A DNA stretch of 64,000 nucleotides from Staphylococcus phage RQ1, in the sequence record PV344601.1. One strand, written 5' to 3'. Numbering within the stretch: the stretch's first letter is position 1; every line of letters starts with the position of its first letter. Below, in pieces: positions 32,775-34,444 of the stretch. The notes beneath the pieces were generated by a model. The model saw only the letters and a program-made list of their open reading frames with translations, was not told the origin of the DNA and made no database searches. Position numbers and translations under genes: made by a program.

Positions 32775-33668
32775 TTATTTAACCGGTTTTTTAAACCAGT
32801 CTTTAGCTTCCGTAATTAATTTTGTATATTCGTAACTTGCTTTGTTTCTATTTATGTGACTAAAATCTTCATTAAACGGGTCTTTGTTAATGTAATTACC
32901 TTTGAAAAACATATCTTTCATATCTTGTGTTACTCCTGCATTGTGATATATTTTATTTTTATTCCACTTCTCAATAGAATCTGTTGCCCAAGTAAATTCC
33001 ATTTCTTTTTTAGCACGTGGCATTACATCAAATAGAGGCATATTCCATAGTGTTGCCACCATTTCTTGACACCACTTTTGATAATTTGTATCTTTGTCTT
33101 TTATATATTTCCATAGTTTAATACTATCTTCATATACCTTTTTAAAATATTCTGATGAAGGTTTGCTCATAATATATTGAGCTCCTATAGAATCATTATT
33201 CATTGATTTAATATCTTCTATTGACACCCCTACAATTTCACTCATATCTTTTAGTATATTAAAACCATTATCGCATTGCACTATATAGTCATAGTTGAGG
33301 TATCCACCACAATCCGAACCATACCAAACACCTCTCAAATGACTATCTGTCTCAGGTTGTTCTTTTACAATAACATCACTGTCCATAAAGAAATACGTTT
33401 CATTTTCCCTAGAGACATCTTCTTCTAAGTAACGGTACATTAAATATGGTTTTAGACTTGGTATGTACTCAAAGTCTACTCTATCATCTGAATAAACATG
33501 TACATTAACACCTATATTTTTTATTTCTGATATAACACTTTCTTCATGTCTGGAAAACAAAATTACAATATCTTCTTTTAAGACTTCGGCTTTTAATAAA
33601 CCATATATCGCTACTTTAACTTCCCATTCAAATCTAGGTACAGCTGGTTGAGCCATAATGTATTTCAT
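32775..33668 (-). CDS. putative GT-A fold glycosyltransferase (moron between the major tail protein and the chaperone)
   Basis: RBS AAAGGAGAG. Hydrophobic stretch plus DxD motif (YFFMDSDVIV) about 95 aa from the N-terminus. Unusual position. Confidence 0.4.
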   Translation of the reverse strand: MKYIMAQPAVPRFEWEVKVAIYGLLKAEVLKEDIVILFSRHEESVISEIKNIGVNVHVYSDDRVDFEYIPSLKPYLMYRYLEEDVSRENETYFFMDSDVIVKEQPETDSHLRGVWYGSDCGGYLNYDYIVQCDNGFNILKDMSEIVGVSIEDIKSMNNDSIGAQYIMSKPSSEYFKKVYEDSIKLWKYIKDKDTNYQKWCQEMVATLWNMPLFDVMPRAKKEMEFTWATDSIEKWNKNKIYHNAGVTQDMKDMFFKGNYINKDPFNEDFSHINRNKASYEYTKLITEAKDWFKKPVK

Positions 33669-33737
33669 ATTCATTCTCTCCTTTAATCTATGTATACTCC
33701 CCCAAAAGGAGGAGTTGGAAGCCACTACTCAAATAAA

Positions 33738-34001
33738 CTATAATTCTACGTTTGGAACCTCTGACTCTGCTTCTGGAACATCTGACGGGTCACTAGGGTC
33801 TAGTGTAGTCGTCGTTGTAGTTGTTGTTCCCTCTGTTGTAGTCGTGGTCGTGGTCGGCTGAGTTGTAGTTGTTGTAGTTGTCGGCTCAGTCGTCGTAGTC
33901 GTAGTAGTTGGAGCAACTGTCGTTGTTGTAGTCGTTGTAGGAGCTACAGTTGTCGTAGTTGTCGTTGTACTACTTGTAGTCGTTGTAGTGGTTGGCTTAG
34001 G
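33738..34001 (-). CDS. +1-frame C-terminal extension of the major tail protein (poly-Thr repeats TTTTTTT(VAP/EP/QP))
   Basis: Frame open through the CCC_UAA stop context of exon 3. Ends PNVEL*. Confidence 0.5.
   Translation of the reverse strand, partial: PKPTTTTTTSSTTTTTTTVAPTTTTTTTVAPTTTTTTTEPTTTTTTTQPTTTTTTTEGTTTTTTTTLDPSDPSDVPEAESEVPNVEL
33800..34000 (-). repeat. ACN-codon tandem repeats encoding the poly-Thr blocks of the major tail protein extension
   Basis: Direct inspection. Confidence 0.8.
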
Positions 34002-34444
34002 GAGTAGTTGTTGTAGTTGTAGTTGAACCGTCCCCAGCAATATTTTCAAACAACGCTTCTAAAGCTGCACGTTTATCTTCACCACGAGCTGTTGCATAAG
34101 TGTTACCATTAGCATCTGCTACGAATTGACCTTCTAATTCATCTGCTTCTGGTTCTGATAATTCGTCTTCATTTGTTGCTAAGTTTTGTTCGTCTAAACG
34201 GAACTTACCTTTTAATAATGCGAAGAAGATAGGTTGACCATCTAATGCTTCTGATTCCATTAAAACACCAGCGTATGGAGGAGTTGTACTTTCCCCAACT
34301 AACATGATGCCATCTTCGTTTTCTTTACGTCCTAATAATTCAGCTGCTAAAGCTTCTGTCATATCAAGAATAGATAATGTAAGTTCTACTGAACCTGTAC
34401 CTTTTTGAGCTACATAATACGCTACGTTTGATGCGTACACTTTT
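33997..34444 (-). CDS. major tail protein, exon 3 (...VYASNVAYYVAQKGTGSVELTLS...TTTTTTTP*)
   Basis: Open frame downstream of group I intron 2. Confidence 0.7.

Follow-up and report, generated by a model that had tools for sequence, protein, structure and literature searches.

A putative GT-A-fold glycosyltransferase gene beside threonine-tagged virion proteins in Staphylococcus phage RQ1

Introduction

DNA and polymers of the host surface are the substrates of many phage glycosyltransferases. Mycobacteriophage Che8 and other phages of cluster F1 encode glycosyltransferases that attach glycans covalently to high-copy virion proteins, resulting in a glycan shield (Freeman et al. 2023, Cell Host Microbe 31:1216, as summarized in PMC11256854 and PMC13313380). 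Dense glycosylation is also found in the Gram-positive serine-rich-repeat adhesins, which are O-glycosylated in the cytoplasm by GtfA/B and subsequently by GT8-type enzymes such as GlyE (PMC7948813, PMC6973325). Here we analyzed a 64,000-nucleotide stretch of Staphylococcus phage RQ1 (PV344601.1; referred to as the window), which encodes a predicted glycosyltransferase next to proteins carrying runs of threonine residues. Virion glycosylation by phages is already known from Che8; the enzyme family and the oligo-Thr tags described here point to an undescribed system that probably coats virions with sugar.

The locus shares with Che8 a phage-encoded glycosyltransferase, identified here by its predicted fold. 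The Che8 sites reportedly lie in the C-terminal regions of the capsid and tail-tube subunits. Likewise, the Thr tags, which would act as acceptors, are C-terminal, and they are carried by the major tail protein (MTP) in this phage and by both types of subunits in relatives. In contrast to Che8, the hosts are Bacillota instead of Actinobacteria, a single gene is located in the structural operon right after the presumed substrate gene, and the enzyme belongs to a distinct family without annotation. To our knowledge, neither a tag of six to nine threonines nor a multi-block extension delivered by frameshifting is a feature of the Che8 system. The serine-rich-repeat pathway resembles our proposal in that soluble glycosyltransferases densely modify disordered Ser/Thr-rich repeats in the cytoplasm of Bacillota, but it is host-encoded, involves several enzymes, is coupled to accessory Sec export, and acts on Ser-rich repeats rather than pure Thr7 blocks. 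Among individual enzymes, the GT8-type retaining GT-A enzymes (glycogenin, LgtC, GlyE) and the related GT24 UGGT and GT77 AgtA are the nearest comparison; the protein described here has no detectable sequence membership in these families, and its acceptor would be oligo-Thr. A64R of Chlorovirus PBCV-1 (2p6w) differs in belonging to a eukaryotic giant virus, in its atypical N-linked glycans, and in lacking an oligo-Thr tag.

Results and Discussion

The enzyme gene and its family

The sequence-only reading of this DNA had proposed a 297-aa ORF between the MTP and tail assembly chaperone genes, a position it described as normally empty. The elements it named are all present where it placed them. 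The ORF called by program comprises 316 aa and starts with GTG at 33725. Alignment of homologues and the ribosome-binding site AAAGGAGAG place the start at the ATG at 33668 on the minus strand, in agreement with the proposed length, and the slot is indeed empty in the related phage 6ec. The genes are:

32775..33668, minus strand: gene for a 297-aa soluble GT-A-fold protein, a putative retaining protein O-glycosyltransferase (DxD at D96-S97-D98, invariant H242)
32164..32744, minus strand: tail assembly chaperone pair, adjacent to the enzyme gene on its downstream side (ORFs of 116 aa, 32394-32744, and 62 aa, 32164-32352)

The chaperone pair matches Phage_TAC_19 (E 4e-21), and the same order of enzyme and chaperone genes occurs in SA2, PT1-4, and phiFL1A. 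In PT1-4, a further gene separates the MTP extension from the enzyme gene; we considered it as a second glycosyltransferase and rejected this assignment, since it encodes a homing endonuclease.

The enzyme matches PHROG 4417, a phage family of unknown function, over its full length (E 9.7e-116; residues 1-289 on positions 1-292 of the 293-position profile). Searches with the ORF and with an alignment of 38 members gave no interpretable match in Pfam, NCBIfam, or PDB sequences; none of the 38 members matches Pfam Glyco_transf_8 (PF01501) even at E <= 10, and a match to the T4 'spackle' protein (E 0.02) was dismissed as chance. As the Pfam glycosyltransferase models do not detect the family, its membership in a CAZy family is unproven. 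Longer members carry Glycos_transf_2 or Glyco_transf_7C domains. Overall, the family comprises about 890 clusters at 50% identity from phages and prophages of Staphylococcus, Enterococcus, Lactobacillaceae, Lactococcus, Listeria, Clostridium, and many Bacillaceae, including ordinary temperate prophages of 35-40 kb. Literature searches yielded no account of this family and none of Thr-tag glycosylation in phages of Firmicutes.

Predicted fold and active site

The AF2 model of the enzyme (pLDDT 95.1) shows a single Rossmann-like alpha/beta/alpha domain whose closest structural neighbors are GT-A enzymes. The top matches are bona fide retaining glycosyltransferases, which lead by five or more Z units, and the neighbors include LgtC, WbbM, and GlyE. 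Foldseek searches against PDB and BFVD led to the same families, with the capsid glycosyltransferase of PBCV-1 (2p6w) among the matches. A non-GT fold in structure or profile searches had been named beforehand as the outcome that would speak against a glycosyltransferase; the GT-A neighbors returned by the structure search favor this assignment. The hydrophobic stretch followed by a DxD motif (YFFMDSDVIV), noticed already from the letters, is present as a strand at residues 91-95 followed by D96-S97-D98.

D96, S97, D98, and H242 are invariant among 38 homologues down to 43% identity. In the family alignment, H242-N-A-G245 followed by F254-x-K256-G257 resembles the GT8 motif H-x-x-G-x-x-K-P-W at the sequence level. 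In GT8 enzymes, the DxD motif and the C-terminal His together bind Mn2+. An hhalign comparison of the family profile with human glycogenin-1 (the sequence used is identical to PDB 3t7m) was not significant and paired only the DxD strand (FMDSD versus FMDAD). The suggested equivalence to the active sites of known GT-A enzymes rests on motif position. The most likely assignment for the protein is a retaining, metal-dependent GT-A glycosyltransferase located in the cytoplasm, with presumed catalytic activity and putative retaining (alpha) stereochemistry.

A protein of this fold could also recognize the Thr tags and transfer a sugar-phosphate or nucleotide, or serve as a non-catalytic tag-binding assembly factor. 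We regard this as unlikely: the best structural matches, again by that margin of Z units, are true retaining glycosyltransferases, the invariant DxD and His are a signature of metal and nucleotide-sugar binding, and the fusions to GT2 and Glyco_transf_7C domains would suit the building of glycans.

Threonine tags and a putative frameshift in the MTP gene

In a six-frame scan of the 64 kb, T7 runs were found at two loci only, which speaks against chance; these are the C-terminus of the MTP with its extension and a linker in the prohead protease:

33997..34444, minus strand: MTP exon 3 (Phage_TTP_1 and phrog_88 matches)
33996..34002, minus strand: putative +1 frameshift site CCC.UAA.G (motif and gene position as in SPP1 gp17.1/gp17.1*)
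33738..34001, minus strand: MTP +1-frame extension, 86 codons after the shifted Pro (ORF and translation)
39169..40293, minus strand: prohead protease (S78) with a long C-terminal region (Peptidase_S78, E 3.5e-38; phrog_36211)

In the 0 frame, the MTP ends with GDGS-T7-P and a stop codon (T7 block at 34003-34023). Since exon 3 ends in T7-P, each tail-tube subunit bears one T7 block. The ORF closes with ...GDGSTTTTTTTP-stop, in which CCC occupies 34002-34000 and TAA 33999-33997. The tail protein extension named in the initial reading is not in frame with the MTP: the T-rich ORF, extending to 33738, lies in the +1 frame, and a programmed +1 frameshift would therefore be needed to attach it. The extension reads KP-T6-SS-T7-VAP-T7-VAP-T7-EP-T7-QP-T7-EG-T8, followed by an acidic tail of 21 aa. 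In the predicted long form of 283 aa, the runs account for 56 Thr, and the junction peptide would be ...TTTTTTTPKPTTTTTT.

The described precedent is phage SPP1, whose major tail protein gene contains a CCC.UAA motif at which programmed +1 frameshifting extends gp17.1 to gp17.1* (PMC6316719). The motif is identical in RQ1 and located at the same end of the MTP gene, the two extensions are comparable in length (86 aa versus 87 aa in SPP1), and both phages share the context of rare CCC and common CCU codons. In contrast, the SPP1 extension is a folded FN3-like domain, whereas the one described here consists of low-complexity Thr7 blocks and its frameshift is predicted from sequence. Of 295 Pro codons, 11 are CCC and 127 are CCT, and we propose that the P-site tRNA-Pro slips from the rare CCC to CCU over the stop codon. 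The site is kept in SA2 (CCC.UAA) and L004 (CCC.UAG), each with an open +1 frame, and homologous extensions are present in SA2, PT1-4, DH5, SscS-F1, TPWB06, and L004-L006. Together, these observations suggest that +1 frameshifting takes place in this phage. No tRNA gene, including one for tRNA-Pro, was found in the window; 6ec-like relatives do carry a phage tRNA-Pro.

The second tagged protein of this phage is the protease and not the capsid protein. It contains four T7 blocks at 39250-39357, in place of the Ser/Asp-rich linker of enzyme-negative phages (as judged from the 6ec protease), with a conserved 26-residue segment downstream. The initial description of these tracts as (Thr)7-X-Pro blocks at the protease C-terminus and in the tail protein stands with respect to the Thr blocks themselves. 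The spacers, however, are SS, VAP, VAP, EP, QP, and EG in the MTP extension and VAP, AKP, and QA in the protease, and so not X-Pro throughout, and the protease blocks lie in a linker, 26 residues before the C-terminus.

Co-occurrence of the enzyme gene and the tags

Same-strand runs of at least five Thr were found at all of the 81 enzyme loci fetched first (SA2, phiFL1A, and 79 distinct IMG/VR loci), mostly ending 11-250 nt upstream of the gene. Among prophage loci from many Bacillota genera, 48 of 50 are tagged, 46 of them within 400 nt upstream and none on the opposite strand; one exception carries TTTS-repeat tags instead. These co-occurrence counts ignore kinship and include many near-identical Enterococcus prophages, with 60 of 91 loci falling into one cluster at 70% identity. 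At this identity threshold, the co-occurrence of gene and tags extends over 17 enzyme lineages. Here the runs lie 1-15 residues from the C-terminus of major head and major tail proteins, and in 13 of the 17 lineages the enzyme gene immediately follows a Thr-tagged capsid or tail gene. A DNA-pattern scan for (ACN)7-N6-(ACN)7 gave 120 loci, mostly unrelated (giant viruses, other frames), and was useful only for eight that carry enzyme homologues of 27-33% identity; for six of these eight, the nearest Thr run ends 229-335 nt upstream of the gene.

We then compared close relatives with and without the gene. In Sextaecvirus, nine enzyme-positive phages are tagged and eight enzyme-negative ones are untagged over the same ~18 kb; T runs in the protease are present in all enzyme-positive relatives and in none of the eight others. 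In Enterococcus prophages with 84-87% identical capsids, enzyme-positive members end with ...TTTTTTKPTTTTTTTQA (capsid) and ...SSTTTTTTTQA (tail), as opposed to ...KLAPTPSK and ...KKADAGK, respectively, in enzyme-negative members. An MTP-based search of IMG/VR yielded seven loci only, and the control set was therefore taken from annotated GenBank phages. No run of at least five Thr occurs in enzyme-negative control loci with an intact gene slot. Three enzyme-negative contigs do have T runs; these contigs stop just past the capsid gene, so that the slot is missing. The link between the enzyme and the Thr tracts, drawn originally from their adjacency, is thus backed by co-occurrence in 17 lineages and by joint absence in two independent sets of relatives.

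These data bear on two further alternatives. The enzyme could be encoded by an accessory gene that was inserted behind the tail gene and has no relation to it, with the Thr runs as functionally unlinked low-complexity expansions. Homing endonucleases and introns abound in the region, so insertions are frequent, and Ser/Thr-rich linkers exist in enzyme-negative phages as well, for example in the 6ec protease. Nevertheless, we consider this explanation highly improbable, given the contrast between enzyme-negative controls with an intact slot and the coding-strand runs at nearly every enzyme-positive locus. In addition, tags are found in several capsid and tail families that are not homologous to each other (phrog_10, 88, 238, and 14018), and their run length is tightly centered on 6-8. 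Alternatively, an active glycosyltransferase might use a non-protein acceptor, such as host wall teichoic acid, a lipid carrier, or phage DNA, with the Thr tracts being unrelated flexible linkers. DNA and host surface polymers are frequent substrates of phage enzymes, and structural neighbors such as LgtC and WbbM act on glycans. But this would explain neither the position of the gene directly behind the tagged gene in 13 lineages nor the joint loss of gene and tags in two independent sets of close relatives. The gene also belongs to the late structural operon, a scan of 20 other large ORFs recognized no genes for DNA hypermodification, and family members are found in ordinary temperate prophages of 35-40 kb. 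There is accordingly little to recommend a non-protein acceptor, and we give it only a small chance.

Virion O-glycosylation as the proposed function

Because enzyme and tags co-occur and are absent together, virion O-glycosylation is the best reading of both, and we consider this predicted activity probable. The enzyme would be expressed with the structural operon, late in infection, and draw on a host nucleotide sugar, presumably a UDP-sugar; neither a sugar-activation gene nor a second glycosyltransferase was recognized among the 20 other window ORFs of at least 150 aa. It would O-glycosylate runs of about seven Thr that lie in disordered tags of proteins involved in virion assembly, either ahead of assembly or in its course. 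Candidate acceptors in RQ1 are the T7-Pro end of each MTP subunit, seven further T6-T8 blocks on the frameshifted subset of MTP subunits, and the four T7 blocks in the protease linker. The outcome may be a mucin-like glycan brush along the tail tube, and in related phages with a tagged major capsid protein the head would be coated as well. Such a coat could serve in surface shielding, adhesion, or stabilization. The protease does not fit easily: prohead proteases are normally internal and self-degrading, so glycosylation of its linker would have no obvious purpose, and this part of the pattern counts against the O-glycosylation reading.

With somewhat less confidence, on balance still in favor, we propose a widespread, undescribed 'threonine-tag' system of virion glycosylation in Bacillota phages. 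In it, a dedicated GT-A family would recognize C-terminal tags of T6-9 plus 1-4 residues, which have arisen on major capsid, tail-tube, and accessory proteins without homology to one another, are in some cases delivered substoichiometrically by +1 or -1 frameshifting, and would lead to mucin-like coats on whole virions. If true, current annotation has overlooked a sugar coat in many phages of clinically and industrially important Gram-positive bacteria, including Enterococcus faecalis and E. faecium prophages, staphylococcal lytic therapy candidates, and dairy phages of lactococci and lactobacilli. For Che8, an effect of the glycan coat on antibody recognition and clearance is reported; a comparable coat would bear on both for therapeutic phages, as well as on adherence to mucus and skin, virion stability, cryo-EM densities, and anomalous gel mobility of capsid and tail proteins. 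It would also establish a new family of protein O-glycosyltransferases with a simple, portable acceptor tag (T7-x-x at the C-terminus), which could serve in the glyco-engineering of bacterially produced proteins or of phages. The glycosylation hypothesis is directly testable, as sister phages with the enzyme (SA2, PT1-4, PMBT8, or phiFL/V583-type prophages of E. faecalis) and without it (6ec, SEP9) exist in nature.

Exons and introns of the MTP gene

The MTP gene contains two interruptions, which the sequence-only reading had overlooked together with the need for a +1 frameshift. Upstream of exon 3, we assigned:

36010..36037, minus strand: MTP exon 1, MASTIGFKR plus 1 nt (exon mapping)
34869..36009, minus strand: intervening sequence 1 (exon mapping, boundaries to about 1 nt)
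34751..34868, minus strand: MTP exon 2 (translation and alignment to the SA2 MTP)
34445..34750, minus strand: group I intron 2 (Rfam RF00028)

The spliced MTP comprises 197 aa and shares 93% identity with the MTP of phage SA2, which is not interrupted. Intervening sequence 1 gave no Rfam match for its interrupted core, probably because a homing-endonuclease ORF splits it; this ORF (34944-35675) encodes an HNH endonuclease (phrog_559, E 1.8e-63). Intron 2 was absent from an Rfam scan of 2.6 kb and was found by a narrower scan, in which RF00028 matched 34496-34760 at 85 bits (gathering score 50; E 1.8e-22); its fold z-score is -2.96.

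Enzyme gene and predicted fold

The window comes from a lytic Staphylococcus siphovirus (genus Sextaecvirus, genome ∼90 kb), whose nearest records are PT1-4 and vB-SauS-SA2 (SA2; ∼80% DNA identity in the tail region). Its structural operon lies on the minus strand and encodes, in this order, terminase, portal, S78 prohead protease, HK97-type capsid protein, connector proteins, the major tail protein (MTP), a 297-aa ORF, the tail assembly chaperone pair, and a 2289-aa tape measure protein. The sequence-only reading had taken this ORF, in a slot said to be normally empty, for a candidate GT-A-like glycosyltransferase with nearby (Thr)7-X-Pro blocks as possible acceptors. 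The ORF is real, and in the related phage 6ec the MTP gene directly abuts the chaperone gene. Mechanical ORF calling starts it at a GTG (316 aa); because a ribosome-binding site and all homologues favour the ATG at 33668, we place the enzyme gene as follows:

32775-33668, minus strand: enzyme gene, 297 aa, ATG at 33668

The DxD motif YFFMDSDVIV noted earlier was found in the ORF, and D96, S97, D98, H242 (in H-N-A-G), and ∼30 more positions do not vary in an alignment of homologues with identities as low as 43%. Searches against Pfam, NCBIfam, and PDB sequences gave no match, either with the single sequence or a 38-sequence profile, or with each of the 38 alignment members scanned at E ≤ 10. 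The enzyme is a member of PHROG 4417, annotated as 'unknown function'. Structure prediction, suggested as a check in the sequence-only reading, returned a GT-A fold: the AlphaFold2 model on the alignment (pLDDT 95.1, pTM 0.92) shows β-strand 91-95 running into D96-S97-D98, and Foldseek searches against PDB and BFVD were concordant, also bringing in the chlorovirus capsid glycosyltransferase A64R and, as a further family member, Orf49 of Lactobacillus phage LP65. Because the model is confident, Foldseek agrees, and DxD and His are invariant, this assignment is firm, and the enzyme almost certainly adopts the predicted fold.

Sequence comparison did not place the enzyme in GT8; hhalign of the family against human glycogenin-1 aligned the DxD strand alone (FMDSD/FMDAD), without significance. 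The closest structural relatives are GT8-type enzymes, and the nearest neighbours are all retaining, which suggests an α linkage for the putative transfer. Given these neighbours and the invariant DxD/His, it is unlikely that the enzyme uses a different transfer chemistry or binds threonine tags non-catalytically. An exhaustive HMMER search yielded 892 family clusters at 50% identity. The C-terminal regions of five long members (550-770 aa) had no Pfam match; other long, distant members (P0160, P0166, P0186, P0180, P0192) carry fused Glycos_transf_2, Glyco_transf_7C, methyltransferase, or radical SAM/SPASM domains, which would fit a glycan-building role.

Threonine blocks and the split MTP gene

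When all six frames of the 64 kb were scanned, runs of seven threonines (T7) turned up at two loci only:

33804-34026, minus strand: MTP end and the ORF beyond
39250-39357, minus strand: prohead protease

The T7 blocks are thus real and specific, but their spacers (VAP, EP, QP, EG, AKP, QA) are not strictly X-Pro. The protease tract, thought to form the C-terminus, lies 26 residues ahead of it, and the Thr-rich tail protein extension is present but in the +1 frame relative to MTP. The MTP gene itself (33997-36037, minus strand) consists of three exons and two intervening sequences:

36037-36010, minus strand: MTP exon 1
∼36009-34869, minus strand: intervening sequence 1, containing an HNH-type homing endonuclease ORF (34944-35675)
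34868-34751, minus strand: MTP exon 2
34750-34445, minus strand: intron 2, group I (Rfam RF00028, 85 bits, E 1.8e-22)
34444-33997, minus strand: MTP exon 3

The spliced MTP has 197 aa, ends in GDGS-T7-P, and is 93% identical to the SA2 protein; the SA2 gene is uninterrupted. Intron 2 escaped an E-value search with Rfam when 2.6 kb (33600-36200) were given and was found with 341 nt (34430-34770). The filters vary with the length of sequence submitted, so that Rfam negatives on long stretches need caution. Other insertions are suggested for SscS-F1, PMBT8, and PT1-1, where the stretch from the connector genes to the MTP 3' end has additional ORFs or split 'major tail protein' annotations. In PT1-4, an inserted free-standing homing endonuclease gene (phrog_314; locus L211, 8317-8997) separates the MTP extension from the enzyme gene.

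The MTP stop codon stands in the context CCC.UAA.G. In SPP1, the tail-tube gene ends in this same sequence, and ribosomes shift +1 there to produce gp17.1*, slipping from the rare CCC to the common CCU (PMC6316719). The putative RQ1 frameshift, recognized from sequence, copies this case. Here, 11 of 295 Pro codons are CCC and 127 are CCT, the +1 frame past the stop is open for 86 codons, and the shift site is kept in relatives (CCC.UAA in SA2, CCC.UAG in an IMG/VR relative). The predicted 283-aa long MTP adds T6, five T7 blocks, a T8 block, and then an acidic tail. In two enzyme-positive lineages (loci L019, 3540-3640, and L009, 1120-1200), the capsid gene ends in ...TTTTT-S-K-stop at A.AAA.UAA and a T-rich ORF runs on in the -1 frame. 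A -1 slip seems to occur here, suggesting that a Thr-block extension of the capsid protein would be delivered by frameshift, like the RQ1 tail extension.

Co-occurrence of enzyme and tags

The link between enzyme and Thr tracts, left untested in the sequence-only reading, is strongly supported by comparative genomics. Same-strand runs of at least five threonines accompany the enzyme gene in SA2, phiFL1A, and 79 of 79 distinct IMG/VR loci fetched, as raw counts without correction for phylogeny (60 of 91 clustered loci fall in one cluster); the distance from the end of the runs to the gene start downstream is usually 11-250 nt. Together with the window and eight distant homologues, the fetched loci represent 17 lineages at 70% enzyme identity, in which the enzyme gene lies immediately 3' of a capsid or tail gene. 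The tagged proteins, where tested, are major head (phrog_10) or major tail proteins (phrog_88, 238, 14018), and the distance of the runs from the C-terminus is 1-15 residues in the closer lineages.

Thr tags were also present at 48 of 50 usable prophage loci (L225-L274) from species-representative Bacillota genomes, within 400 nt upstream in 46 and on the opposite strand in none (again raw counts); of the two exceptions, one has TTTS-repeat tags and one a weak T-rich tail. The genera include Enterococcus, Lacticaseibacillus, Listeria, Staphylococcus, Lactococcus, Clostridium, Trichococcus, and many halophilic Bacillaceae. Capsid, ∼105-aa head or neck, and tail protein of one prophage often have the same tag ending, including the last 2-4 residues (T8-AAGV twice, TTTTTTSA three times), which looks like a shared C-terminal signal co-evolving within each phage. 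Conversely, among 120 IMG/VR loci selected solely for the DNA pattern (ACN)7-N6-(ACN)7, eight hold enzyme homologues of 27-33% identity; in six, the nearest Thr run ends 229-335 nt upstream of the gene.

Two groups of close relatives differ in the gene. Within Sextaecvirus, the window, SA2, PT1-4, DH5, SscS-F1, PMBT8, PT1-1, TPWB06, and an IMG/VR relative (L004/L005) carry the gene together with T runs in the protease linker as well as at the MTP end; gene and runs are both absent from 6ec, BE22, S-CoN_Ph10, CF1, SEP9, PG-2021_46, and two contigs from IMG/VR. The Ser/Asp-rich protease linker is turned into T7 blocks in all enzyme-positive Sextaecvirus relatives. In Enterococcus prophages with the same gene order and 84-87% identical capsid proteins, enzyme-positive members end in ...ALGTTTTTTKPTTTTTTTQA (capsid) and ...KKSSTTTTTTTQA (tail protein), whereas enzyme-negative ones end in ...KLAPTPSK and ...KKADAGK. 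Coincidence is unlikely, because the tags recur on unrelated capsid and tail families and there are two such gain-or-loss contrasts. That enzyme and tags have no functional link is accordingly very improbable, as their joint presence and absence would be left unexplained. For the same reason, acceptors other than proteins, for instance teichoic acid or DNA, are improbable.

Proposed glycosylation of threonine tags

We consider O-glycosylation of the Thr tags by the enzyme likely. A soluble late protein would transfer sugar from a host nucleotide sugar to the oligo-Thr tags of virion proteins in the cytoplasm. Every tail-tube subunit of RQ1 would carry one modified T7 block, and a fraction set by frameshifting would bear a mucin-like stalk of ∼65 residues, so that the tail would be covered by a glycan brush. 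Among 20 other large ORFs, neither a second glycosyltransferase nor a sugar-activation gene was recognized, so that the enzyme might, speculatively, attach single sugars, or both start and lengthen chains like glycogenin. The putative glycan could serve as a shield against antibodies or proteases, in adhesion, or in solubility. One piece that this mechanism does not account for is the T7 linker of the prohead protease, a protein that should be internal and undergo degradation.

Functionally, the nearest precedent is the virion glycosylation of cluster F1 mycobacteriophages, which reportedly involves several glycosyltransferases encoded near the genome 3' end (Freeman et al. 2023, as cited in PMC11256854 and PMC13313380). 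In contrast to that system, RQ1 has a single, unrelated, unannotated enzyme adjoining its presumed substrate gene, and a simple Thr tag. In its chemistry, the proposed reaction is similar to the glycosylation that serine-rich-repeat adhesins undergo in the cytoplasm. The full-text literature, as far as covered, gave no account of a PHROG 4417-type enzyme or of Thr-tag glycosylation in Firmicutes phages. The finding extends to hundreds of phages whose hosts are of medical and industrial importance, with enzyme-positive and enzyme-negative relatives as ready-made natural controls.

Other observations

TPWB06 (L216, GenBank PQ358086), labelled 'Arcanobacterium phage', is syntenic with the Sextaecvirus structural module and its enzyme is 62% identical; the host label may deserve checking. 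Further genes in the window are:

7358-7894: guanylate kinase homologue
10763-11743: tyrosine recombinase (Phage_integrase and N-terminal SAM-like domain)
11832-13994: BppU-type baseplate protein (tail tip) with collagen-like repeat
19566-22181: 871-aa fibre with pectate-lyase-like and Peptidase_G2 intramolecular-chaperone autocleavage domains

The recombinase is surprising, as the group is regarded as lytic. A tRNA search of the whole 64-kb window found none; a tRNA-Pro (UGG) adjoins the terminase genes in the enzyme-negative 6ec-like phages BE22, S-CoN_Ph10, CF1, and SEP9 (L217-L220).
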